Assembly: GCA_949299535.1 (NCBI GenBank)
Contig: CASGAQ010000002.1
Coordinates: 39,790-103,789 of the forward strand
Length of the DNA: 64,000 nt
From: an uncultured Eubacteriales bacterium
GTDB taxonomy: Bacteria; Bacillota; Clostridia; Oscillospirales; CAG-272
Direction of reading: 5' to 3'
The notes beneath the pieces are model-generated. The model saw only the letters and a list, made by a program, of their open reading frames with translations. It made no database searches and was not told the origin of the DNA. Position numbers and translations under genes: made by a program. Positions 3,636 through 59,400 of this stretch are shown here, one piece after another. The first letter of the stretch is position 1; each line of letters starts with the position of its first letter.

Positions 3636-5656
3636 AAAAATTCAAATCGAGTCTTACCGCCAAGATATGCGCTTGGATATTGCTTGCGCTTTTTGTATTG
3701 CTGTTTTCTGTCAGCGTCGCGGGCGTTACGGTTCTTGTCGGCTCGCAGGCGTATTTCGACGGCGGAAGAAACCTGAGGAAGATAGTTGCCAACGAAGTTT
3801 TTTCTTTTGACCGTCACAGAATATCTCTTTACGCAGAGAGCGTGCTTCAAGGCGAGGAAGACATCGCTCAATACGGATATGATGAGATATACGATCCCAA
3901 GAACAGCAATATCTTTTTCTCGGTCGAAAATGAAAACGGAGAAGTGATTATCGATCACATGGACAATGTCGATTGGTGTGAAAAGATAGAATACGAGAGT
4001 TTTTATCATATCATCAATACCGATGGCGAGCCGAAAATAAATGAGATGATTGAATATTTCTCTACGTACGAAGAAGCTGTCCGGTTTACCACATCAGAAG
4101 ATTCTAAAATGATATATGATAAAAGTATAGTTACAACCGAAAACGGATATAAAGCGACCATCAGATATTATGATATCGGCAATTATACCGTAAAGGCGTT
4201 TATACGTTCGGACTTTACAGCGAAAGATAAGTATTATTATACTCTGAGTGCGGTGAACATACTTACTGAAATGCGTTTTGCGATAATTTTCATAGGACTT
4301 GCTTCTGCCGTCATATGCCTTGTCATAATGATATTTCTGTGTTCGGCGGCAGGGCATAAAGCCGGAAGCGAAGAAATATATCTTTCGCGTATCCATCGTA
4401 TACCGTTAGATCTTTATGCGGCTGTTTGCATATCATGCTCAATATTCTCGATAAGTATGTTTTTTAACAAAATTTTCGACGGCTCTCTTACACTCGGACT
4501 TATTATCGTTCTTCTCTTGCCTTTTTGCGCCGTTTTGCCGGCGTCGGTAGCCGTGACATTTGCGGCAAGATTAAAAAAAGGCGGCTGGTGGAGAAATACG
4601 CTGATATATAAATTTTTCGCTTTGATATTCAGAGTGCTCAAATATATCGTTGTGAATCTGCCGTTTTACTGGAAAGCTATAATGCTTATCTGCGCCGTTA
4701 AGATAGTAGAATTTATCTTTATTTTGGAAAGAAATGTATATCCGATATTTTGGCTCTTGGAATCTTTTGTATTGATAGCTGTCGTTATATATGCCGTAGT
4801 ATCGCTCAGAAAATTACAGAAAGCCGCTTCCGAGATAGCAAAGGGAGATCTCGAATACCGCGTAGATGTGCGCGGCATGACTCATTCGCTCAGGAGCCAC
4901 GGAGAAAATCTCAACAATATAAGCAACGGTCTTAAAGCGGCTCTTGACGAGCGCGTTAAAAGCGAGCGCATGAAAGCGGAACTTATAACGAATGTTTCTC
5001 ACGATATAAAAACGCCTCTTACGTCGATAGTAAATTACATAGGTCTGCTAAGGCGCGACGGATTGGCTTCAGCTTCTGCTCCCGAATATCTCGACGTGCT
5101 TGAAAATCAAGCCGTACGACTTAAAAAACTGACTGAGGACCTTATCGAAGCTTCAAAAGCTTCATCAGGCTGTATCGCAGTGAATGCGGAAAACACAGAC
5201 GTAAACGTTCTTCTTTCGCAGGCGGCGGCAGAATACGACGAGAGATTCTCCGAAAACTCTCTGGAACTTGTTATGAATCTTTCCGATAAAGCGCCGGTTA
5301 TATTTGCCGACGGAAGGCTTATGTGGCGCGTTTTTGACAATCTTTTCAACAACATCTGCAAATACGCGTTGAAAGGCACTCGGATATACATTAAATCTGA
5401 TATAAAAGACAACAGGTGCGTTATAGTGTTCAGCAATATTTCAGCGGCGCCGCTGAATATTTCCGGCGAGGAACTTGTAGAGCGTTTTGTGCGCGGAGAT
5501 GCTTCGCGCAATACGGAGGGAAGCGGCTTAGGTCTTTCCATAGCTCAAAGCCTTATAGAGCTTCAGGGCGGAACATTCAAAATAAAGATAGATGCAGACC
5601 TTTTTAAAGCCGAGATGACATTTGAAAACGTTGCGGCTGACAAGGAGCAGTCCTGA
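3632..5656 (+). CDS. sensor histidine kinase (two TM regions, large extracytoplasmic domain, HAMP, HisKA, HATPase)
   Basis: ATG overlaps the regulator stop (ATGA). H-box SHDIKTPLTSI, N-box NNICKYA, G-box GSGLGLSIAQ. Confidence 0.9.
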   Translation: MKKFKSSLTAKICAWILLALFVLLFSVSVAGVTVLVGSQAYFDGGRNLRKIVANEVFSFDRHRISLYAESVLQGEEDIAQYGYDEIYDPKNSNIFFSVENENGEVIIDHMDNVDWCEKIEYESFYHIINTDGEPKINEMIEYFSTYEEAVRFTTSEDSKMIYDKSIVTTENGYKATIRYYDIGNYTVKAFIRSDFTAKDKYYYTLSAVNILTEMRFAIIFIGLASAVICLVIMIFLCSAAGHKAGSEEIYLSRIHRIPLDLYAAVCISCSIFSISMFFNKIFDGSLTLGLIIVLLLPFCAVLPASVAVTFAARLKKGGWWRNTLIYKFFALIFRVLKYIVVNLPFYWKAIMLICAVKIVEFIFILERNVYPIFWLLESFVLIAVVIYAVVSLRKLQKAASEIAKGDLEYRVDVRGMTHSLRSHGENLNNISNGLKAALDERVKSERMKAELITNVSHDIKTPLTSIVNYIGLLRRDGLASASAPEYLDVLENQAVRLKKLTEDLIEASKASSGCIAVNAENTDVNVLLSQAAAEYDERFSENSLELVMNLSDKAPVIFADGRLMWRVFDNLFNNICKYALKGTRIYIKSDIKDNRCVIVFSNISAAPLNISGEELVERFVRGDASRNTEGSGLGLSIAQSLIELQGGTFKIKIDADLFKAEMTFENVAADKEQS

Positions 5657-17772: not shown

Positions 17773-18861
17773 ATGTCAGGAAGATTGTTTCAGGGTGTCA
17801 TACACCAAATGAAAGATGCCGTTGGTCGTACCATCGGTGTTATTGATGAAAACGGAGTCGTTATTGCTTGCAGCGACCTTATGAAGATAGGCGAAACGCG
17901 CCAGGCTGCCAAAGAAGAACTTATATACTCCTCCGAATCCGTTGTTTATTCCGGCTATACATACCGGTCAATGGCGACAGATACTCATCCGGAATATATC
18001 GTGTTTGTGGAAGGTGAAGATGTCATGGCGGATAAGTTTGCCGCTGTTCTTGCGATATCTTTCAACAATATAAAGAGTTTTCACGATGATAAGTATGACA
18101 AAACCTCTTTTATAAAAAATATCCTTTTGGATAATATCCTTCCAAGCGATATATACGTTAAAAGCAAAGAACTGCATTTTGCTACCGATGTTACTCGCGT
18201 AGTTTTCTTGCTTAAATTCAGCAACGTAGGTGAAAATTCTCCTTATGATATCATGCTCAATATGTTCCCGAACACAAATCAGGATTATGTTATAAGCATG
18301 GGCGAGAATGACGTAGTGCTTGTTCGTGAGCTCAAATCTTCAACTGTAGAGCTTCACGAAACAGAGAAGATCGCCAAGACTATTGCAGATACCATCGCGT
18401 CTGATTTCTTTATAAAAGCGTCTATAGGCATAGGCACGCCCGTAACGAATATAAAAGATGTTTCGCGCTCTTACAGAGAGGCTCAGGCGGCTCTTGAAGT
18501 AGGCAGAGTATTCGATACCGATAAGAATATAATCAGCTATGAAAACCTCGGTATAGGAAGACTCATTTATCAGCTCCCCACAACTCTTTGCGAAATGTTT
18601 CTCAACGAAGTTTTTCAAAAAGGTTCGCTTGACACGCTCGACAGAGAAACTTTGCTGACAATACAGTGCTTTTTTGAGAACAATCTCAATGTTTCGGAAA
18701 CTTCGAGAAAGATGTTCGTTCATAGAAATACTCTCGTATACAGACTTGATAAGATCAAAAAACTCACGGGACTTGATCTGCGCGAGTTCGAAAACGCCAT
18801 AACGTTTAAAGTGGCGCTCATGGTAAAAAGTTATCTCTCATATAAACAGAACAGATATTGA
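17773..18861 (+). CDS. PucR/CdaR-family transcriptional regulator
   Basis: The C-terminal HTH NVSETSRKMFVHRNTLVYRLDKIKKLTGLDL is typical of PucR C-terminal domains. Confidence 0.8.
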   Translation: MSGRLFQGVIHQMKDAVGRTIGVIDENGVVIACSDLMKIGETRQAAKEELIYSSESVVYSGYTYRSMATDTHPEYIVFVEGEDVMADKFAAVLAISFNNIKSFHDDKYDKTSFIKNILLDNILPSDIYVKSKELHFATDVTRVVFLLKFSNVGENSPYDIMLNMFPNTNQDYVISMGENDVVLVRELKSSTVELHETEKIAKTIADTIASDFFIKASIGIGTPVTNIKDVSRSYREAQAALEVGRVFDTDKNIISYENLGIGRLIYQLPTTLCEMFLNEVFQKGSLDTLDRETLLTIQCFFENNLNVSETSRKMFVHRNTLVYRLDKIKKLTGLDLREFENAITFKVALMVKSYLSYKQNRY

Positions 18862-19000
18862 TTTTTTCGGATATTCAAAATAAATCAGGCGATCCCGCTG
18901 TAAAATATAAAGACTACGGCAGGCTCGCTTTTGCGTATAACCGTATGAATGAGCAGTTCATTTATTCGGTTCATCTTGTTTTAATTTTTTTGAGGTTTTT

Positions 19001-20272
19001 ATGGGTTTTAATAACGATATTAAGAGCGGAACCAAAAATGAAGAAAACAGCTCCGCTTCTGCAAATAGCAAAAAAAAGATAACAGAGCTTAAAATTTCTT
19101 TGCTTTGGACGATATTTATTGTTATCCTGGCTGTGCTTGTAACTTTTCAGACAACTTTTGTTGTTCTTACGGGAAAGCACAAGCTGGAGCTTAACAAGGC
19201 AAAAGAAACTGTTTCAAAATTTTCTCTTTTGCTGGAAGCTTATGAGTTGTTTGAAGATAATTATGTTTACGACATAGATGATGAAAATCTTTTAAATTAT
19301 ATGCTGTATGCTTTTTCTGCGGAAGATAAGTATTCTTCTTATATGACTCCCGAAGAATTTAAAAACATGCAGCTTGAAAGCGCGGGAAATGCAAGCGGTA
19401 TAGGTCTATATGTCGCTTATGCGGAAGATTGCATAAGAGTTGCTCATGTTATGGCAGATTCTCCCGCCGACAGAGCAGGAATGATGTCCGGAGACCAAAT
19501 CGTTGCAGTGGACGGCAATGAGGTTTCCGAAGTAGGATATGACAAAGCCGTAAATCTTGTTGCCGGCGAAGAGGGAACTGACGTAAGACTTACCGTTGTG
19601 CGCGGAGAGAATACTCTCGAATTTGCCGTAACGCGCGGCGATTATACGCCTGAAACAGTCATCTTTAATACGATAGAGGAAAACGGATATAAGATAGGCT
19701 ATATAAAAATATTGCAGTTTGATCAGATAACGGTTTCTCAGTTTAAAACGGCGGTTGAAGCGTTGCGCGCCGACGGCTGTGAAAAACTTTTATTCGATCT
19801 GCGCGATAACCTCGGCGGCGAGCTTAACGCTATTGTTGAGATACTCGATTATCTGCTTCCTCAAGGTCCGATCGTAAGGATACTTGATTCTGATAAAAAA
19901 GAGATACAGGTTTATGAATCCGATAAACATGAACTTGATATGCAAATGGCGGTGCTTGCAAACGGAAACACGGCTTCTGCTGCGGAACTTTTCACATCGG
20001 CTTTGCGCGATTATGAAAAAGCCGAGATAATAGGCGAAAAAACATACGGCAAAGGCTGCGGACAAACGTATGAAAGACTGTCAAACGGCGGATATATATC
20101 GATAACATCATTTTTCTATAATCCGCCTTTCGGTGAAAATTATGACGGTGTGGGGATCTATCCCGACATAGAGGTAGAACTTCCCGAAGAATACAAGAAT
20201 GAAAATCTTTTCTTTGTTCCTTATGAAAGCGATACTCAGTTAAAAACTGCGGTCGCTTATCTGACTAAATAA
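19001..20272 (+). CDS. ctpA: S41 family C-terminal processing peptidase with PDZ domain and N-terminal membrane anchor
   Basis: PDZ region (SPADRAGMMSGDQIVAVDG). Catalytic Ser context NGNTASAAE and Lys context GEKTYGKG. Confidence 0.88.
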   Translation: MGFNNDIKSGTKNEENSSASANSKKKITELKISLLWTIFIVILAVLVTFQTTFVVLTGKHKLELNKAKETVSKFSLLLEAYELFEDNYVYDIDDENLLNYMLYAFSAEDKYSSYMTPEEFKNMQLESAGNASGIGLYVAYAEDCIRVAHVMADSPADRAGMMSGDQIVAVDGNEVSEVGYDKAVNLVAGEEGTDVRLTVVRGENTLEFAVTRGDYTPETVIFNTIEENGYKIGYIKILQFDQITVSQFKTAVEALRADGCEKLLFDLRDNLGGELNAIVEILDYLLPQGPIVRILDSDKKEIQVYESDKHELDMQMAVLANGNTASAAELFTSALRDYEKAEIIGEKTYGKGCGQTYERLSNGGYISITSFFYNPPFGENYDGVGIYPDIEVELPEEYKNENLFFVPYESDTQLKTAVAYLTK

Positions 20273-20304
20273 AAAATATATAATCCAAGGAGAATTCTAT
20301 AATT

Positions 20305-20793
20305 ATGGCAAAACAAATGACATCTGTTACAGAAGCAGGATTTCATAAACTGAAAGAAGAACTTGAGTTTTTAAAGAATGTAAAGCGCCGTGAGGCGGCA
20401 GAAGCGGTCGGCGTGGCTCGTTCTTACGGAGACCTTTCCGAAAACAGCGAATATGATGAGGCTAAAAATGAACAGGCAAAAGTAGAAGCTCAGATAGCTG
20501 AACTTGAAGAAACTCTTGCTCACATAAAGATAGTAAACGATGAAGAGATAAACACGAGCATTGCAAATATCGGTCTTACCGTAAAAGTGCTTTACATCGA
20601 CGATGAAGATGAAGTTGAGTATCATCTTGTCGGTTCCAGAGAAGTAAACGTGCTTGAAAACAAAATTTCGGACCAGTCTCCGATAGGCAAAGCTATAATG
20701 GGAACTAAAGCCGGCGACATAATAACCGTTGAAATTCCTTCCGGTTCTATCAAAATCAAGATTCTTGAAGTAAGAAAAACAGAACAAAACTAA
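20305..20793 (+). CDS. greA: transcription elongation factor GreA (canonical copy)
   Basis: 162 aa. Coiled-coil tip [13 protein letters not shown] and C-terminal [12 protein letters not shown]. Conserved greA-lysS arrangement. Confidence 0.95.
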
Positions 20794-20815
20794 GACAAAA
20801 ATCAGGAGAATACAA

Positions 20816-22768
20816 ATGACAGAAGCAATAAACAACATAAACGAAGAATTGAACGAAGAAAAGCTCAGCGAGATATTGCAGATACGCCGCAATAAACTTT
20901 CCGCGCTCAAAGAGAACGGCAAGGACCCTTTTGAAATAGTAAAATACGATGTAACATCAGATTCAAAAGCCATATTCGAAAACTTCGAACAAATGGAAGG
21001 CAAAGAGGTATACGTCGCGGGAAGAATGATGAGCCGCAGAATCATGGGAAAAGCTTCTTTTGCTCATATCGCAGATTCCACAGGCAAGATACAGGTTTAT
21101 GTAAAGCGCGACGATGTCGGCGAAGGAGATTACGCTGATTTCAAAAAATGGGATATCGGCGATATCATAGGTCTTTCAGGCGTTGTTTTCAAAACTCAGA
21201 CAGGAGAGATTTCAATACACGCACATTCTGTGACGCTTCTTGCAAAATCTCTTCTTCCCCTGCCCGAGAAATTCCACGGACTTAAGGATACGGATCTTCG
21301 TTATCGTCAGCGCTATGTTGATCTTATTGTAAATCCCGATGTTCGTGATACATTTGTAAAACGCTCCCGGATTTTGAAAGAGATCCGTGCATACCTCGAC
21401 GGCAAGGGCTTCCTTGAAGTTGACACCCCTATCCTTCTTCCGATAGAGATCGGCGCTTCGGCACGCTCTTTTAAAACTCATCATAACACGCTCGATATCG
21501 ATATGTATCTCCGCATAGAAACAGAGCTTTACCTCAAACGCCTTATCGTCGGCGGAATGAACAAGGTTTACGAGGTAGGACGTATTTTCAGAAATGAAGG
21601 TATGGATACAAAGCACAATCCCGAATTTACAACGGTAGAGCTTTATCAGGCATTTACCGACTATCACGGCATGATGGACCTTGTAGAGGAACTTTACAAG
21701 AGACTTGCGCTTAATGTATGCGGTTCTTTGAACATCACATATCAAGGCAAAGAGATCGATATGAGTCACTGGGAAAGACTCACTATGATCGAAGCAGTGA
21801 AGAAATACGCAGGCTGCGACTACAATGATTGGGCGACAGATGAAGACGCTCGTGCTTGTGCAAAATCCATGCATGTGGAAGTTCCCGAAAATGCAACCAA
21901 AGGTACCGTTCTTATTGAATTATTTGACGCTTTCGTAGAGGAAAAACTTATTCAGCCTACATTTATCTATGACTATCCCGTTGAAAACAGTCCTCTTGCA
22001 AAACGCAAACCCTCCGATCCCGCATTTACGGAGAGATTTGAATACTTCATTAACGCTACGGAATTTGGCAATGCGTTCAGCGAGCTTAACGATCCCATAG
22101 ATCAGAAAGAACGCTTTGAAAAGCAGGTTGCCGCTAAAAAAGCCGAAGACCCTAACAGCAAGGCTGAGGTTGACTACGACTATATCACGGCGCTTGAATA
22201 CGGTATGCCTCCCACAGGCGGACTTGGATTCGGTGTCGATCGTCTTGTAATGTTGCTTACAGACTCTCCTTCCATAAGAGATGTGCTGTTATTCCCGACA
22301 ATGAAACCCTTAGATGGTGTAAAGAAAGAAATTGGTGTAAATTCTGAAGCTGCAAAAGCTCCTGATACACCAAAAGCAGAACCGGAGAAAATTGATTTTT
22401 CCAATGTGAAAATCGAGCCGCTGTTTGAGGAGTTTGTAGATTTTGAAACATTCTCAAAATCTGATTTCAGAGCTGTAAAGGTAAAAGAATGTGAAGCTGT
22501 GCCAAAGAGCAAAAAGCTCCTTAAATTCGTTTTAGATGACGGTACAGGCACAGACAGAGTGATTTTAAGCGGTATTCACGAGTATTACGAGCCGGAAGAA
22601 CTGGTCGGAAAGACCTGTATCGCTATTACAAATCTGCCGCCTCGTCCAATGACGGGCATTGACTCCTGTGGTATGCTGATTTCGGCAGTACACGAAGAAA
22701 ACGGCAGAGAAGGTCTTAACCTTTTGATGGTTGATGACCGCATTCCGGCAGGTGCAAAACTCTATTAA
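20816..22768 (+). CDS. lysS: lysine--tRNA ligase (class II) with a C-terminal Trbp111/MetRS-C-like tRNA-binding domain
   Basis: Class II motifs ([19 protein letters not shown]). The canonical end ...LLFPTMKP is at ~22309. The ORF then continues ~150 codons into an OB-fold-like domain, [29 protein letters not shown]...GMLISA. Confidence 0.93.
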
Positions 22769-22904
22769 GATGTATCGTTTTGCCTGTGAAAACGGGATGT
22801 ACTTCATTTTCTGAAAAGCTCAGATTTTACACAAATACACCAATTTTACACCAATCGATGTCAAAATCGGTGCAGAGGTAAAAAAATCGCATAATTAACG
22901 GAAT

Positions 22905-22940
22905 AAATGGGCAGTCCCTTAATGGGGTTGCCCATTTTTA
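22905..22940 (+). terminator. hairpin downstream of lysS
   Basis: aaatgggca/tgcccattt stem followed by T-rich sequence. Confidence 0.6.
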
Positions 22941-22975
22941 GAAGAAAGAGAAATATAAAGTTACAGAGGTATAGT

Positions 22976-23488
22976 ATGGATATAAGACAAGAGAGAATAG
23001 AAGATTATAATTTAATATATACGGTAGTAAAAGCTGCTTTTGACAGTGCAGAACACGCAGATGGCAACGAGCAGGAGTTAGTAACTGCGCTAAGAAAAGG
23101 TGAAAACTATATTCCACAGTTAGCGTTAGTAGCTGAGGAAAAAGGGGAAATTGTAGGTCATATTATGTTTACAAAGGCAAGAGTTGGTGAGACTGATGTT
23201 TTAGCACTGGCGCCATTATCTGTTTTGCCGGAATATCAAAGAAAAGGGATTGGAACTGCTCTGATAAAGGAAGGACATAAAATTGCAAAAGATTTAGGAT
23301 ATGGCTATTCTGTCGTTTTGGGAAGCGACACCTATTACCCAAGAGTAGGCTATGTGCCGGCGGATACATTAGGAATATTCCCTCCTTTTGAGATCCCAAG
23401 AGAAAATTTTATGGCTTATAAAATAAATGAAAAGTCTCCTGATGTTACTGGCGTTATAACTTATGCAAAAGAGTTCGGTATTGAATAA
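22976..23488 (+). CDS. GNAT family N-acetyltransferase (YhbS-like)
   Basis: 170 aa. Acetyl-CoA motif PEYQRKGIGTALI. RBS agagg before the ATG at 22976. TTA-rich Leu codon usage is unlike its neighbours. Confidence 0.85.
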   Translation: MDIRQERIEDYNLIYTVVKAAFDSAEHADGNEQELVTALRKGENYIPQLALVAEEKGEIVGHIMFTKARVGETDVLALAPLSVLPEYQRKGIGTALIKEGHKIAKDLGYGYSVVLGSDTYYPRVGYVPADTLGIFPPFEIPRENFMAYKINEKSPDVTGVITYAKEFGIE

Positions 23489-23511
23489 TATGACTTCCGG
23501 TTGTCAAATCA

Positions 23512-23551
23512 CCCTTTGAGAGAGAAATACTTCTTTCTCAAAGGGCTTTTT
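23512..23551 (+). terminator. intrinsic terminator after the GNAT gene
   Basis: 15-bp stem ccctttgagagagaa/ttctttctcaaaggg (one mismatch) followed by cttttt. Confidence 0.8.
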
Positions 23552-23809
23552 ATCTGCATTTTGTGTGCTATTTCAATCTTTCTTTTCAGATATAATGCAA
23601 TTATAGGGCGAATAGCTCCAATGTTAATATGTGTTGCTTGTAGCAACGGCTTGTTTTGAATACAATAATGGTAACAACTGAAAGGAAGGTGGTTATATTT
23701 CCCAGTTTTTCCGCTCCTCACCAATTCTTCTTCGTTTGAGTGTTGATCATCCGTGACTTACATAAACTGCGATGATGTAAACGGAGCGGGAAATTTTGTT
23801 TTTGCTTGA

Positions 23810-23838
23810 TTGATAAATATAATCTTTTATGATATAAT
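23810..23838 (+). promoter_or_regulatory. sigma-A type promoter of the Gre-paralog operon
   Basis: TTGATA, 17 nt, TATAAT. Confidence 0.65.
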
Positions 23839-23902: not shown

Positions 23903-24406
23903 ATGCATGATGAGTTGACAAAAGTCGATATAAAAAAGATGCAGGATGAGATAGATTACCGCGTAAATGTTCTTACCCCGAAGCTTAAAGAAGAACTAAG
24001 TAAAGCGCGAGCACTCGGCGATCTGAGCGAAAATTTTGAGTATAAATCATCAAAAAGGGAACTCAGCCGCAATTACAGCAGGATAAATTATTTACAGCGC
24101 ATGATAGCTACTGCCGTAATCGTTTCTACGGATACCGACGAAGGAAAAGTAGGGCTTTTCAGTAAAGTACGCCTTTATGTTGAAGAAGACGACGAGGAGA
24201 TGGATATAGTTATAGTTACAACTCTTCGCCAAAACTCAACGGAGGGTTTTATAAGCAAGGAATCGCCTTTGGGCAAAGCCATAATGGGAAAGAAAGTCGG
24301 AGATAGAGTTCTTGTTAAAGTGAATGACAATTACAGTTACTATGTCGTTATTCGTTCGGTTGAAAAGGGCGAGGACGATGAGAATCTTGAGATAAGTTCT
24401 TTCTGA
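23903..24406 (+). CDS. GreA/GreB-family protein, second paralog
   Basis: 167 aa. Coiled-coil tip GDLSENFEYKSSK retains the acidic residues. C-terminal SKESPLGKAIMGKKVGD. RBS aaggag. Confidence 0.85.
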   Translation: MHDELTKVDIKKMQDEIDYRVNVLTPKLKEELSKARALGDLSENFEYKSSKRELSRNYSRINYLQRMIATAVIVSTDTDEGKVGLFSKVRLYVEEDDEEMDIVIVTTLRQNSTEGFISKESPLGKAIMGKKVGDRVLVKVNDNYSYYVVIRSVEKGEDDENLEISSF

Positions 24407-24407
24407 T

Positions 24408-24989
24408 ATGCCGCGCGAAGACAGACCTCTTTTGTTTGATGAAGATATACGCATACTTCTTTTTGATTATCTTGATTTCAAATATCCGAAAGTGCGGACA
24501 TTTGAAGAAAAGATAATAGGTCGTTCACGCTCAGACGTAGTAGTTGTATTACCGGACGCTGTTATCGGTATAGAGATAAAAAGTGATGCAGATTCATACG
24601 CGCGCCTTTCGACACAAATCAAAGATTATGATAAATATTTCGATATGAACTATATTCTTGTCGGCGAGAGCCATCTGACTCAAGTGGGAAAACACATTCC
24701 AGGTCATTGGGGTATTCTTTATGTAGATCAGAGAGAGGAAGAGCCTATCGTTCGAGAAGCGCGTTCAGCTTGTCAAAATCCCAAGATAAAGCTTAAAACT
24801 CAGTTTGCTTTTATATGGAAGCGCGAACTTTTGGAACTGCTCAGGATAAACGGTCTTTACTCGCACAGACACAAAAAAAGAATGCTTATCGTTGACACTC
24901 TTACGGCAAATGTGGAGCCGAAACTATTAAAACTTCAAATGTGCGATATCCTTTTTGAAAGAGATTATTCTATATTCGAAGAAGAATAA
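24408..24989 (+). CDS. sce7726-like protein with PD-(D/E)xK-type motif
   Basis: 193 aa. SDVVVV...GIEIKSD matches a D...E-x-K nuclease-fold core. The overall pattern (DIR..L..YL, EIKSD.DS..RL..Q...Y...FD, WGIL, W.RELLELL) fits my recollection of the sce7726 family. It starts 1 nt after the Gre-paralog stop. Confidence 0.6.
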   Translation: MPREDRPLLFDEDIRILLFDYLDFKYPKVRTFEEKIIGRSRSDVVVVLPDAVIGIEIKSDADSYARLSTQIKDYDKYFDMNYILVGESHLTQVGKHIPGHWGILYVDQREEEPIVREARSACQNPKIKLKTQFAFIWKRELLELLRINGLYSHRHKKRMLIVDTLTANVEPKLLKLQMCDILFERDYSIFEEE

Positions 24990-39934: not shown

Positions 39935-40133
39935 ATAATGCCTTCTTTTGTAAAATAGTTGTATATAAATATTATACCAAATATCTATTATTATATCAAT
40001 ATTTATGATATAAGCAATGAAAAAATTATTAATAAATCTTATTTATTTTTTAAAGTTTGAATCAAAATCATTCACGCCGTTTTTGTTTTTCGAATATAAT
40101 GGCGAGAAGTATAATAAAGAAAGAGGCGACTGT

Positions 40134-40628
40134 ATGAATAAAGTTTATCCCGATTTTTTTGCTCTTCTCAGGCGGCGGCCTTCGGCATATTCATATTTGC
40201 ACGGAAGCGCACGCTGGCCGGATATAAACGGGACGGTGCGATTTTATGAAACGAAGTACGGCGTAGTAGTCGCGGCACAGATAACGGGACTTCCATCGTC
40301 AAATGAGCCGTGTAAAAGTCCTATATTTGGATTCCATATCCATGAGGGAGGTGCTTGTTCAGGTACGGAGGAGGCTCCTTTTTCTGCGGCAATGGGACAT
40401 TATAATCCTCACTCGTGTCCGCATCCGTATCATGCAGGCGATATGCCTCCGATATTCGGTGCAGAGGGTAGGGCGTTTCTCGCTTTTTTGAGCAGCAGAT
40501 TTTCCGTAAAAGAGATAGTGGGCAAAACCGTCATTATCCATGCGGGACCTGATGATTTCAAAACACAACCCTCCGGAAACGCGGGAAGCATGATAGCCTG
40601 CGGCGTGATAAAAGCGTCGGGTTTCTGA
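40134..40628 (+). CDS. Cu/Zn superoxide dismutase-like protein without signal peptide
   Basis: 164 aa. FHIHEGG, GHYNPH and HAGDMPP copper/zinc ligand contexts. RBS agagg before the ATG at 40134. Confidence 0.8.
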   Translation: MNKVYPDFFALLRRRPSAYSYLHGSARWPDINGTVRFYETKYGVVVAAQITGLPSSNEPCKSPIFGFHIHEGGACSGTEEAPFSAAMGHYNPHSCPHPYHAGDMPPIFGAEGRAFLAFLSSRFSVKEIVGKTVIIHAGPDDFKTQPSGNAGSMIACGVIKASGF

Positions 40629-50953: not shown

Positions 50954-51145
50954 GGTGAGAGTTCCTTCCGAAAAAATAAAAAATAATGAATGTTTTGAAA
51001 TATACTTTGTTATTTTATCATAAGACGCGGAGAAAGGCAATCGTTTCGGTAAAAATAACGTTTTTGAAGATGATAAAAATAAAAAAGAGATTTTGCAAGG
51101 ATTTTTTGTTTTTCGATCGTATAATAAATGAAAAGGAGGTGTCAT

Positions 51146-51697
51146 ATGGATAAAGGAGCCGACAGCTACCGTCGTTTTTTGGACGGTGAAGAAAGTGCTT
51201 TTGATGAGCTTATCGAAAATTACTACGAAATGCTCGCTCGCTTTATTAACGGATATGTGAAGGATTACGCAGTTGCCGAGGATATTGCCGTTGACGTTTA
51301 TACTTATATCATAATCCACAAGCACAAATATAATTTCAAAACATCTTTTAAAACGTATCTTTTCATGATAGGCAGAAGCAGGGCGCTTGACTACCTGAAG
51401 CGGTCAAAAAAATTAAAAACGGTCGACTTTTCGGATATCGAGAATGAAATTTCGGAATCGGCTGTTCCTGAAGATATTGTTTTTGCCGATGAGAGAAGAG
51501 AGATCGTAAGTAATTACCTTAATAAACTGCCGACAGATATGAGAGAAGTGTTAAGGCTCGTATATTTTGAAGGACTTTCATATGAAGAGACGGCTGCGAT
51601 AATGAAAAAAAGCCGAAAACAAGTGGACAATCTCCTTTATCGATCGAAGGAAAAACTGCGTTCCGCCATGGGAAAGGAAGGTGAACTTCTTCTATGA
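51146..51697 (+). CDS. ECF-type RNA polymerase sigma factor
   Basis: Region 2 (AEDIAVDVYTYII) and region 4 HTH (LSYEETAAIMKKSRKQVDNLLYRSKEKL). RBS aaggagg before the ATG at 51146. Confidence 0.88.
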   Translation: MDKGADSYRRFLDGEESAFDELIENYYEMLARFINGYVKDYAVAEDIAVDVYTYIIIHKHKYNFKTSFKTYLFMIGRSRALDYLKRSKKLKTVDFSDIENEISESAVPEDIVFADERREIVSNYLNKLPTDMREVLRLVYFEGLSYEETAAIMKKSRKQVDNLLYRSKEKLRSAMGKEGELLL

Positions 51698-52236
51698 GAA
51701 GAACAACGGAAGAAATAAAAACAGAGATCTTTCGTCGGCGTGATGAATACTTGAAAAAGAGGAAGGCTCGTATATTTGCAGTATCCTCTCTGGCAGTTCC
51801 TCTTGCGATTTTTGCGGTAATATGCTCGGCGGTTTTTCCACGCGATATATTTCCTTATGTTGAGGAGAGCGTTTACTTTGGGAAGACAGAGAAAGTACAT
51901 TTTATCGTATTATCGGACGAAGCTTTTTTGAGCGAGGCAGAGAAGGTCGATTTTGTTGAATATGGCAAAGACCGAGTGATACCGGAGAGGACTTATCAGG
52001 ACGAGATAATTTCATTTATGAGAGAATTTACAAAGTCTGCGTCTCTGTTGGACGAGACAGAGAGCATTACCGAATCAAATTCTGAAAAACCGTTATATGT
52101 ACTGAGATTTTTCTCGAAAAGCGGAGAAATGCGTGAGTATGCCGTGTATCAAAATTATATCGTCAGCACGGTAGAAAACTATCTTTTGTCACAGTCTGAC
52201 TTTGAATTTCTTAAAGAAATACTCGAAAGGAGTTGA
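51694..52236 (+). CDS. putative anti-sigma factor (short cytoplasmic N-terminus, one TM helix, extracytoplasmic domain)
   Basis: ATGA overlap with the sigma gene. TM segment IFAVSSLAVPLAIFAVICSAVF. No ZAS motif. Confidence 0.55.
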   Translation: MRRTTEEIKTEIFRRRDEYLKKRKARIFAVSSLAVPLAIFAVICSAVFPRDIFPYVEESVYFGKTEKVHFIVLSDEAFLSEAEKVDFVEYGKDRVIPERTYQDEIISFMREFTKSASLLDETESITESNSEKPLYVLRFFSKSGEMREYAVYQNYIVSTVENYLLSQSDFEFLKEILERS

Positions 52237-56475: not shown

Positions 56476-59400
56476 CTACTTTATAACTACACCGTCATTG
56501 CCCAATAGCTTTTTGAGATATGAGAGCATATTCGGTCTTATGTCTGTGCCGACGCTGTATTTTTCGTATTTTTTTTCTTTTTCGTTATATATCACGACAG
56601 GTGTAGCTCCTTCGAATATGGAAATCACGCTCATCACCTGAGTGAAAAGTTTTCCTTCCTTGTCGGGAACTTTAAGATATATTTTCTGCTGTTTTGTCGG
56701 CTCTTGCCTAAGCGGTGTTGGAGCAGTCTGTCCGTGTTTTGCCGTCGTCTCTTTTTGTGGGGCGGAGGCCGCGGGGTTTTCTTCCGGAAGTCCTTCAGCG
56801 AGAAGATTTATTGCCGAAACAAGTATTTTAGGCTCTCGGTTTTCCTCGGCGGATATCTCTCCGCGCAGACATACGGCAGAATCTTTTGTGAGTATATGGG
56901 AAGAATCCGCGAATATCTTGGGGAATATTATCAGTTCTATCTCTCCGGTCTTATCCTCCAGTGTGAGGAACGCCATGGAAGCACCGTTTTTTGTCGTTTT
57001 TACCGTTTTGGACGTTATTATGCCGCATAGTTTTACTTTTTGCTTGTCTGCGAACGGAATGATGTCGTTTTCTGCTTCTTCTTCGGAAAATGAAGCGAGT
57101 ATGGCGCCTATCGGCATTGGTATTATATTTTCGATATATTCGCTGTAATCGTCGAGCGGATGGCCTGAAAAATACATACCGGTCAGTTCCTTTTCCTGAC
57201 GCAGTTTTTCTTTGACTGAATATTCGGGAATGTCGGGGTAATCGTATGCGTCGGTTTCTCCGAAAGTTTCACGGGCGCATAAGTTATCCATCGTGAAAAG
57301 GTTCATCTGGTCGGTATTCTGTTCTCTGGCGCGGCGCACATAAATATCGATTATCTTTTCATATTCGCTGTGAAGCGCGCTTCTTTTTATACCGAGCGAG
57401 TCGAATGCTCCGCTGAAGATAAGGGATTCTATCTGCCGTTTGTTAATCTCATATTTGCTCATTCGCTTTACGAAATCCACAAACGATGAATAAGGGCCGT
57501 TTTCATCTCTTTCGGCTATGACCTGCGAAAGAAATGCGTCTCCTACACTTTTGATTCCCAAAAGACCGAAACGTATCGATTTTCTGCCGCTCTTATCCGT
57601 TGTGACGTGATATGTCTTTCGGCTCTCGTTTATGTCGGGGCCAAAGACTTCGATACGTATTTTTTTCGCTTCCTCTATGTAAGAGGCGCTTTTGGTAATG
57701 TTATCTGAAACGGAGGAGATGAGCGCGGCAAAATATTCGCATGGATAGTGCGTTTTCAGATATGCCGTTCGGTAAGAGATATACGCGTAAGGAGTCGCAT
57801 GATTTTTGTTGAAGGCATATTTGGCAAAAGATGCCATGCTATCAAAGATCTCTTCCGCGTCTTTTTCGGAAAGACCGCGGGCAACAGCTCCTTCGCAGAG
57901 AACGTTACCGTTTTCATCTTTTTCTCCGTAAATGAAAGCGTTGCGTTCTTTTTCCATCTCACCGCTTTTTTTCTTGCCCATGGCGCGCCGTATGATATCG
58001 GCTCTGCCGAGGGAAAAACCTGCCAGACGGCGGCATATTTCCATGACCTGCTCTTGATATATTATACACCCTGATGTACCCGAAAGTATCTCTTTGAGAG
58101 CTTCGCATTTGTAGCTTACTTTGTCGGGGTTTCTGCGGTTTTCAAGGAACGTCGGAATGGAACTCATCGGTCCCGGACGGTATATGGCAATGGCGAGAAC
58201 GATATCCTCTATATTGCGCGGCTGCATACCTGTAAGAAGTTTTCGCATACCTGCGCTTTCAAGCTGGAAAAGACCTTCGGTTTTGCCTTGCGAAAGAAGT
58301 TCGTACGTTTTTTTGTCGTCGGTCGGTATGGATGTTATATCAAAATCAGGCTCTTTTTCACGTATCTGCTTCTCCGTGTCTGATATTATGGTCAGATATC
58401 TCAGACCGAGAAAGTCGAATTTGAGAAGTCCTAGTTCTGCTATCGTGTCCATCGTGAACTGAGTCAGTGTCATATCGCTCGATACCGCGACGGGAACGTA
58501 TTCATAGACAGGTCTTTCTGTTATGACTATACCTGCGGCATGAGCGGAAACATGGCGAGGCATACCTTCAAGCGACATCGATATGTCGATGAGTTTTTTT
58601 ACTTCCTCACTGTTTTTGTACATTTCTCCGACCCTGCCGAGCATCGCGTCCGCAAGCGTGACATGAAGGTCATCCGGCACCGCCTTTGCGACGACGTCCA
58701 CATCCGCATAACTCATTCCCAATGCTCGTCCGACGTCTCGTATGACCGCTTTTGCAGAGAGCGTACCGAATGTGGCGATACCGCAGACGTGGTCGGCACC
58801 ATATTTTTTTGAAACATAGTCTATGACTTCGCCTCGTCTGTCGTAACAGAAATCAGTATCGAAATCTGGCATGCTTATTCGCTCGGGGTTGAGAAAACGC
58901 TCGAACATAAGATCGTATTTTATTGAATCTACATCCGTTATACCGCAAAGATAAGCGACAAGGCTTCCGGCACCTGAGCCTCGTCCGGGGCCTGTCGGAA
59001 TACCTCTCTTTTTGGCGGCGGCGATAAAATCGTTGACTATAAGATAATATTCCGCATAACCCATTCGGCATATGACGGAAAGCTCGTAGTCTATCCTCTC
59101 GCGGTATTCGCTTTTCGGGTGCTTTTCGCTGAAATTTATCGCGCCTGAGGAGATCTTGTTTTTGAAACCTTCGTTTGCAAGACGCGTAAGGTATTCCTCG
59201 GGGCTTTCTCCTGTTTCGGGCTTGAAACGAGGCTGATATATTTTTCCAAATTCAAAATCGAAATTACACATATCGGCAATTTTTTGCGTGTTTTCGCAAG
59301 CTTCCGGATATGCGGAAAAGAGCTTTTCCATCTCCGATGTACTTTTATAATAAAACTCGTCCGTTTCAAATCCGAACGGACGTCCGTCGGATATCTTGGA

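Follow-up and report, generated by a model that had tools for sequence, protein, structure and literature searches.

Why does a gene for a class II lysyl-tRNA synthetase (LysRS) run on for about 150 codons past its canonical end, and why does its codon usage change as it does so? The gene is lysS of an uncultured Eubacteriales bacterium, in a 64-kb window of contig CASGAQ010000002.1 (assembly GCA_949299535.1). This window is the whole stretch of DNA analyzed here, and all coordinates refer to it. A preliminary description of the window proposed that the 3′ end of lysS and the GNAT acetyltransferase gene behind it had been replaced by foreign DNA in a homology-driven crossover. Our analysis favors a different agent. 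With a probability of roughly 80%, the stretch 22292-22947, which comprises the last 159 lysS codons, the 3′ untranslated region (UTR), and the terminator, represents the left end (attL module) of a lysS-specific integrative element, joined to the host gene at an attachment repeat. Labels such as L081 and P0004 denote comparison loci and proteins retrieved for the analysis.

The lysS open reading frame (ORF; 20816 to 22768, plus strand, stop codon at 22766-22768) encodes 650 amino acids and is a canonical class II LysRS to about residue 498. The NCBIfam equivalog lysS_bact (TIGR00499) matches residues 17-498 only, with 636.8 bits against a cut-off of 427.6, which places the protein among the class II lysyl-tRNA synthetases. 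NF001756 matches with 696 bits, and Pfam recognizes tRNA_anti-codon (PF01336) at residues 65-142 and tRNA-synt_2 (PF00152) at 159-496. The frame thus does continue past the canonical LysRS end, as the preliminary description had stated. An A/P/E/K-rich linker then joins the core to a tRNA-binding domain. Pfam tRNA_bind (PF01588) covers residues 552-647 (E 4e-21; 75.3 bits against a gathering cut-off of 27; model positions 2-95 of 96). In the PDB the tail matches Trbp111 (1pyb, E 1.6e-18, with residues 6-110 of 111 aligned) and the beta subunit of methionyl-tRNA synthetase (MetRS; 8vtz, E 1.2e-18), and more distantly the Entamoeba LysRS with its EMAPII-like domain (4up8, E 3.5e-7). The tail also matches TIGR00399 (metG_C_term) at E 7e-30, its 103.7 bits lying under the NCBIfam cut-off of 116.65. 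The appended MetRS-C/Trbp111-like domain that had been proposed is therefore present. Compared with 13 other extension types, the extension has a ratio of nonsynonymous to synonymous substitution rates (dN/dS) of 0.05-0.2, which shows that it is under purifying selection. By analogy with MetRS, the most likely role of the domain is to increase tRNA affinity in cis, as a general tRNA-binding cofactor. LysRS is a dimer, so the two appended copies could pair as they do in Trbp111.

How did this domain reach lysS? We profiled DNA identity in 60-nt bins between the window and two loci, L081 and L083. Their different upstream genes (S41 peptidase and greA in L081, tRNA-synt_1b and greA in L083) show that the two belong to different genomes. 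Before the step the window matches them at 50-85% per bin, mostly 65-80% in the 3′ half, and similarity stays low through 22291 (L081) or 22297 (L083). From there to 22947 identity is 95-100% per bin and 99% overall; beyond 22947 there is no similarity to either locus. Identity to the element copies starts at TTCCCGACAATGA, in the codons of the conserved LLFPTMKP motif, so the preliminary description was right that the 3′ end of lysS is foreign and joined inside this motif. The coding part of the shared stretch (block A) is about 99% identical at the nucleotide level in L081-L085, L089-L091, and L181-L190, where core identity in lysS is no more than 70-79%. The near-identical end (99%) accompanies six clusters of cores whose identity goes down to 71%; it thus occurs in unrelated hosts, as is expected of mobile DNA. 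A split comparison of core and extension agrees: 13 full-length homologues have cores 72-79% identical to that of the window and extensions 99.3% identical. Downstream of lysS, L081 and L083 are about 100% identical through genes for MerR, DUF4379, a 59-aa ORF, ParA, ParB, a 221-aa ORF, and a 1418-aa SpaA-domain protein. Judged from its sequence, this stretch is a mobile element, referred to below as the MerR element.

The position of the step identifies a known attachment site. In enterococci and gut Eubacteriales, vancomycin-resistance (vanD) islands inserted in lysS have a 13-bp repeat, TTCCC[g/a/c]AC[a/g]ATGA, on either side (PMC10765050, PMC8301612, PMC8725431). All junctions in the related loci fall on this repeat, and more than 20 other loci hold integrase-bearing elements bounded by it. 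At left junctions (the window, L081, L083, L089, and L090), host DNA is followed by TTCCC[G/C]ACAATGA and then by identical element DNA. At right junctions, element DNA is followed by [A/T]TCCCNACNATGA and the displaced host lysS end. The right end in L086 consists of three Xis genes, a 422-aa integrase, 286 bp, and ATCCCGACAATGA-AACCGTTAGACAAGTAA, which encodes the native PTMKPLDK and stop. Three different elements in L092-L095, ending with DUF6462 and a 410-413-aa integrase, lie directly before an orphan native 155-aa tRNA_bind ORF and then a set of host genes shared by these loci. In L096-L098 a single element, whose integrase has 98% identity to the one in L086, stands ahead of orphan native ORFs (176-190 aa) in three different host contexts. 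Overall, integrase and Xis genes occur in L086, L091-L100, and L181-L189, and a displaced end after a second repeat is seen in L086, L092-L098, and L184. Five integrases that we compared are 45-64% identical to one another; all match Integrase_DNA and Phage_integrase, with a Tn916-type arm-binding domain and a catalytic domain. Because host-specific bases are retained to 22297 in L083 and L090 (and to the ninth repeat base in tandem junctions), and the first difference between element and host after the repeat is at 22309, strand exchange would fall within about 22298-22308. The features of the locus are collected in Table 1.

Table 1. Features of the lysS locus and its right flank, in window coordinates
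Feature	Coordinates	Strand	Basis or remark
Native part of lysS, codons 1-492	20816..22291	+	Anticodon-binding OB fold and class II catalytic core; Pfam, NCBIfam
13-bp attachment-site repeat TTCCCGACAATGA, putative attL copy	22292..22304	+	Same as direct repeats of lysS-inserted vanD islands; sole plus-strand copy in the window
Block A, probable element-derived 3′ end of lysS: FPTMKP codons, A/P/E/K-rich linker, tRNA-binding domain, stop	22292..22768	+	About 99% nucleotide identity; aberrant codons
Trbp111/MetRS-C-type OB-fold tRNA-binding domain, residues 552-647	22469..22756	+	PF01588, PDB, TIGR00399
Block B, conserved non-coding left arm, probably of the element	22769..22947	+	98-99% identical to MerR-element copies
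Hairpin CGTTTT-N7-AAAACG just past the lysS stop	22775-22793	+	In block B
TACAC[AC]AA repeats	22828-22854	+	In block B
Invariant AAAAATCGCATAAT	22882-22895	+	In block B
lysS terminator hairpin and T run	22905..22937	+	Inverted repeat I11; stem kept by compensatory changes in L066 and L075
Second foreign segment, with GNAT gene; different nearest relative	22948..23696	+	Match to L086 and L088
GNAT N-acetyltransferase gene, 170 aa	22976..23488	+	Pfam Acetyltransf_1/7/9/10
Terminator hairpin after GNAT	23512..23545	+	
Non-coding stretch, strain-variable end	23697..23838	.	Homology to L086/L088 stops at 23696

Several features of the related loci bear on how such elements behave. At least six different Xis-integrase elements, with IMS polymerase, LexA-like, PemK, MobA/primase, and NikA genes among their cargo, lie in tandem left of the MerR element (L091, L181-L189), and this crowding makes lysS a hotspot that is heavily used for insertion. 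Tandem junctions such as that of L091 resemble attP hybrids, which is not proof of excision or integration. The MerR element also decays: L184 (5992-8890) holds a 2.9-kb remnant of it between two repeats, with the extension, MerR, and a truncated DUF4379, followed by the native short lysS end KTIDK-stop and host genes. As an orphan ORF of 155 aa, the element-type extension is found in 341 index blocks, and the Xis-integrase end of other, tandem elements precedes it in nine of the ten contexts shown. Stand-alone tRNA_bind ORFs of 155-190 aa (L181-L190, L092-L098; for example L181 6001-6468) start at an ATG inside the repeat and are displaced or element-borne lysS 3′ ends. Their source labels, 'methionine--tRNA ligase beta chain' or 'tRNA-binding protein', are probably a systematic misannotation.

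Codon usage breaks at the same place. Against the background of the 51 ORFs of the window (Ile: ATA 52%, ATT 19%; Leu: CTT 47%, TTA 5.6%), the native part of lysS is typical, with a codon-fit score of 0.137; the core has 13 ATA, 14 ATC, and 7 ATT codons for Ile, and CTT for 27 of 43 Leu. The extension after SIRDVLLFP scores -0.014, where other 156-codon windows average 0.120 (standard deviation 0.052) and only 0.7% score as low. Its codon choice departs from that of the window for Ile (p = 3.7e-6), Pro (p = 0.005), and Leu (p = 0.008). The preliminary description had counted 8 ATT, 2 ATC, and 0 ATA for Ile in the extension, which is exact, and had put the break at about 22283. In a formal codon-fit test, the best change point within lysS is codon 488, at nucleotide 22280. 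It had likewise called the GNAT gene TTA-rich, and this gene, with TTA for 10 of 16 Leu, no CTT, and 0.29 G+C at third codon positions, has the lowest codon-fit score of any in the window. The next lowest scores (-0.017 to -0.006) belong to three ORFs at 51128-52236 and 40017-40628, which may be other foreign genes; one of them encodes an ECF-type sigma factor 40% identical to one adjoining GNAT in L086.

Outside the element copies, the nearest DNA relatives of block A are only 80-84% identical (L066, L053 from Hungatella, L028 from Ruminococcus sp., L029 from Blautia, and L092-95). They are mostly named as Lachnospiraceae or Clostridium-type metagenome-assembled genomes, and one member of the 90% protein cluster of block A is named Anaerobutyricum hallii. 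A source outside the host lineage is suggested for the ATT-, CCG-, and GGT-rich codons of the block.

What did lysS look like before? A scan of reference genomes, which served as a survey of LysRS length, found that the closest cores match residues 1-500 only: 89% amino acid identity in L020, 88% in L023, 86% in L027, and 78-82% in 13 more. The short ORFs of the first three end in FPTMKPID-stop, IQ-stop, and LAD-stop. The native part of lysS in the window is 76-78% identical to theirs at the nucleotide level and 86-89% at the amino acid level, the upstream order (PucR-like, S41 peptidase, greA) is common to the window, L023, and L027, and homology of the short-form relatives to the window ends at about 22309. 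In L023 the short lysS (4001-5509) has an in-frame interruption that leaves two ORFs, 4001-4936 and 4976-5509; the gene is either a pseudogene or carries a sequencing error. Because the closest core relatives carry a LysRS of about 500 aa, the insertion most likely converted an ancestral short LysRS into the fusion, which would be expressed from the native lysS promoter. The preliminary description had left open whether the fusion was produced or imported. It was created in a lineage with short-enzyme relatives, but the LysRS-tRNA_bind architecture is shared by all 120 of the best full-length LysRS matches, so it was imported rather than invented.

To the right, block B is 72-86% identical to DNA behind lysS in L030, L048, L004, L066, L075, L076, and L088, and MerR and/or DUF4379 genes adjoin the B-like arm in L030 and L075. 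The TACAC[AC]AA repeats in it are candidate arm sites for the integrase or Xis. A search of block B against Rfam returned no family match, only sub-threshold chance matches. The window is of element type to 22939 and of GNAT type from 22948, which puts the joint within the 8 bases common to both types (22940-22947) at the arm's edge; the GNAT gene occupies the position that MerR has in the full element. L086 and L088 match 22836-23696 at 97.5% identity, and at about 99% inside the GNAT gene. This DNA lies in L088 behind a short lysS end (FPTMKPLDK-stop) and a B-like arm with 85% identity to B; in L086 it lies behind the Xis genes, the integrase, and the repeat. The foreign stretch of the preliminary description, given as 22283-23552, is thus real but runs from 22292 to about 23696. 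Its two parts are both foreign, as proposed, yet their joint import is not borne out, since their nearest relatives differ: the left end of the MerR/ParAB element at 99% for the one and L086/L088 at 97-99% for the other.

The GNAT protein exceeds the Pfam thresholds of its domain family (PF00583, 49.4 bits against 20.7; PF13508, 41.8 against 27; PF13527, 31.8 against 25), and no NCBIfam equivalog reaches its cut-off for it. Its start is likely the ATG at 22976, not that at 22907, and the identical protein occurs in L086, L087, and L088. Two candidate arrangements were discarded. GNAT beside lysS is not general, as relatives at 60-78% identity lie in 34 gut contigs with no lysS or repeat nearby. 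L068 has a short lysS (TMKPLDK-stop) and a similar hairpin, but a MATE transporter follows, which excludes it as donor of the GNAT gene. A promoter-like TTGATA-17-TATAAT lies at 23810-23838. Right after 23838, L087, another assembly of the same species, departs from the window into unrelated AT-rich DNA with a different gene (L087 6100-6372), which reflects a polymorphism between strains or else a misjoin immediately to the right of the scar; the window alone therefore links the GNAT segment to the DNA on its right. greA precedes lysS, and the genes after GNAT encode a second GreA paralogue (167 aa) and, one base later, a sce7726-family protein (NCBIfam NF033832, E 4e-42). These two genes (23903-24989) resemble native genes in codon usage and seem to form a two-gene unit.

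Could the mosaic have arisen in another way? RecA-type homologous recombination with foreign lysS DNA would use the conserved motif as its left homology and need no site-specific integrase. It would fit a window that has no integrase, a junction in the most conserved stretch of lysS DNA, and a joint between B and GNAT that looks like an exchange within homologous arms. However, the break falls, to the exact base, on the repeat that flanks integrase-bearing elements at the other loci and in the published vanD islands. Identity there extends over 13-17 bases, far under the usual need, and the imported block is an invariant mobile-element end rather than a chromosomal allele. Junctions are moreover fixed at the repeat in every case seen, not scattered along lysS. 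The homology-driven crossover of the preliminary description is thus unlikely, its place being taken by the attachment repeat. Vertical inheritance of a long lysS with an oddly composed tail would agree with the 120 long-form best matches and with the 62 long-form loci among 78 reference loci. It is already contradicted by the data and hardly credible: the tail is 99% identical in nucleotides to copies behind cores that are 70-75% identical, the sixteen closest reference cores are short, and the identity step and the codon change point fall at the same place.

An assembly chimera is another way to create such a mosaic, through the 655-bp block common to many gut genomes. The block is indeed a multi-genome repeat, L191 ends inside block B, and L087 leaves the window at 23838. 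Yet L087, from another sample, is 100% identical to the window over 18000-23838 and reproduces both junctions, and L191, also from another sample, has 3 single-nucleotide differences over 19662-22913 and reproduces the left one. In all, the left junction is the same in three assemblies from different samples, and the B-GNAT junction in two. The 13-17 nt shared at the left junction are below usual assembly k-mers, lysS would have no 3′ end if the block were removed, and native codon usage flanks 22292-23838 on both sides. We consider a chimera very improbable.

Insertion of an element at the repeat thus remains the preferred reading, and several observations count against it. The 64-kb window holds no homologue of integrase, Xis, MerR, DUF4379, ParA, ParB, or SpaA (integrase and Xis of L086 were searched by tblastn), so that we infer the insertion from the scar alone. 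A single match to an element gene, an ECF sigma factor at 40% identity, is unrelated. There is also no second repeat or displaced native lysS end on the plus strand within the 64 kb. The right end and integrase of the MerR element were not recovered, and the search with the L086 integrase listed none on the contigs of L081 and L083. The link to the vanD islands is drawn from a common repeat and target gene, together with the gene order given in the literature. The switch from B to GNAT within 8 shared bases is short for homologous recombination. The short ancestral state is also less than certain, as a long-form protein, P0004, has an 86% identical core with an extension only 81% identical. 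Finally, only 5 of the 62 long-form reference loci carry the arm motif of the window. The idea that every long-form lysS is followed by the element arm was dropped on this count, and we make no claim that all extensions derive from this family; the remainder may be native or come from other element families. On the minus strand, a one-mismatch copy of the repeat, TTCCCGACAAGGA, occurs at 56669 inside a 1200-aa ORF. Its surroundings show neither lysS-like nor element sequence, and the match is probably due to chance.

With neither element genes nor a second repeat, the window holds a remnant, not an element. The events behind it may be pictured as follows. The elements would encode a Tn916-type tyrosine integrase and Xis proteins and recombine at the 13-bp TTCCCNACNATGA, in the codons of the conserved LysRS motif FPTM(K). 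Each would bring its own replacement for everything 3′ of the exchange point, in this case a 156-codon cassette of linker and Trbp111-like domain, then a 3′ UTR with repeats and a terminator. Insertion in an ancestor would have swapped the native end of a few codons (TMKPxx-stop) for this cassette, yielding the 650-aa fusion. The far end of a full MerR element is predicted to carry Xis, a Tn916-type integrase, ATCCCNACNATGA, and then the displaced lysS end, and the element behind the scar was probably conjugative. Its body, with integrase, partition, and transfer genes, would later have been lost together with the displaced native end. The scar would be expected to stay because an essential gene now has no other 3′ end or terminator. 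The GNAT segment would come from a related lysS-linked context, probably joined by recombination in the shared arm B or by exchange between elements. In one possible history, recombination between the B arms of tandem elements deleted the element body; in another, truncation later befell a variant of the element whose first cargo gene was GNAT. Any particular history of element loss and GNAT acquisition is tentative, with somewhat less than an even chance of being right.

Is the domain exchanged more widely? Long-form LysRS are common in Oscillospirales, Lachnospiraceae, and Christensenellales. Among 184 of them, the identities of core and extension correlate weakly (r = 0.52). The extension type of the window occurs on 6 core clusters, another type on 9 (core identity down to 59%), and a single core cluster (at least 95% identical, n = 53) bears 11 extension types. 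When tRNA-binding domains were compared over the last 100 residues only, domain identity was below 90% in 236 of the 1089 pairs whose cores were at least 99% identical. Conversely, 119 pairs with cores below 65% had domains at least 97% identical (for example in Spyradocola, Catabacter, and Coprococcus). Core and extension are thus largely uncoupled, which suggests that the extension is a swappable cassette. A general model, for and against which we see even odds, would make the tRNA-binding domain of LysRS in gut Clostridia a mobile cassette. Elements that target lysS, of a family that includes the vanD islands, would each carry a copy. Their insertion would swap or add the domain, and tandem insertion and decay would leave orphans and scars.

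Elements that insert in the 3′ end of a gene normally restore it almost unchanged; here the element end appears to be a complete, selected domain of about 150 aa. Insertion would give an enzyme essential for translation a new domain architecture, which could become fixed once the element is lost. This would explain why fusions of LysRS with tRNA_bind occur patchily, why gut metagenomes hold many stand-alone ORFs labeled 'methionine--tRNA ligase beta chain' (as displaced lysS ends), and why assemblies break at the lysS locus. If the cassette model holds, the patchy distribution of long and short LysRS would largely reflect element traffic, not descent. Site-specific insertion of integrative and conjugative elements (ICEs) or islands into the 3′ end of lysS at this repeat is already known. 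In the literature searched, we found no description of lysS elements that supply a whole tRNA-binding domain and convert a short LysRS to a fusion, of a LysRS domain exchanged as a cassette, or of scars that fix a domain in a host gene.

Known systems share single aspects of this locus. The MetRS-C/Trbp111-type domain is a cis-acting, non-specific tRNA-binding cofactor (PMC11286949). The tail of the window's LysRS matches the MetRS C-terminal domain, Trbp111, and CsaA strongly over the whole domain, including the dimer-forming part of Trbp111. Unlike MetRS-C, it is attached to LysRS and scores below the metG_C_term cut-off, and its tRNA-binding role is predicted by analogy. The LysRS of Entamoeba histolytica (PDB 4UP7-4UPA) is likewise a class II enzyme with a C-terminal OB-fold domain of the same superfamily (EMAPII-like), but it is eukaryotic and distant, with a longer EMAPII-type domain and no mobile-element origin. 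Streptococcal ICEs use site-specific tyrosine integrases at the 3′ end of lysS, with direct repeats of 13-17 bp, and spare the host gene (Ambroset et al. 2016, PMC4701971). Their repeats are the last 13-17 bp of the gene, which is restored essentially unchanged, whereas the putative element-borne end in the window has 474 bp, adds a domain of about 150 aa, and occurs in another host group. The row of elements at one att site (L091, L181-L190), the two-repeat remnant of L184, and the window's own remnant, which has no recombination genes, recall the CIME-type elements of the ICESt1/ICESt3 family. In that family, site-specific ICEs accrete in tandem and decay to att-flanked remnants. The remnant in the window differs in having one repeat, so that it is not a mobilizable CIME, and in keeping a functional part of an essential gene.

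The closest likeness is to the vanD islands and ICEs in lysS (Tn6711-Tn6713 and ICEVREfm_vanD). Their target is also the 3′ end of lysS, their 13-bp repeat is the window's 22292-22304, their integrase lies at the end distal to lysS as in the related loci, and their hosts likewise extend across gut Clostridia. The published table for ICEVREfm_vanD, which covers the genes between the repeats, gives an integration module of a 1233-bp integrase gene, a 171-bp ORF, DUF6462, helix-turn-helix (HTH), and sigma-70 (PMC10765050). The order in that table (an integrase of about 410 aa, small ORF, DUF6462, HTH, sigma-70) matches L094 and L187. Unlike these islands, the window has a left-end scar of about 0.65 kb and the GNAT segment, with no island body or van genes. 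The vanD-island papers call lysS 'disrupted' and do not report an element-supplied tRNA-binding 3′ end (PMC10765050, PMC8301612). The attachment site common to this locus and the vanD islands suggests that acquiring a vanD island may also alter the LysRS of the recipient. If so, the LysRS expressed by enterococci that gain one would, depending on the left end of the island, have a foreign C-terminus and might be a 650-aa fusion like the one described here.

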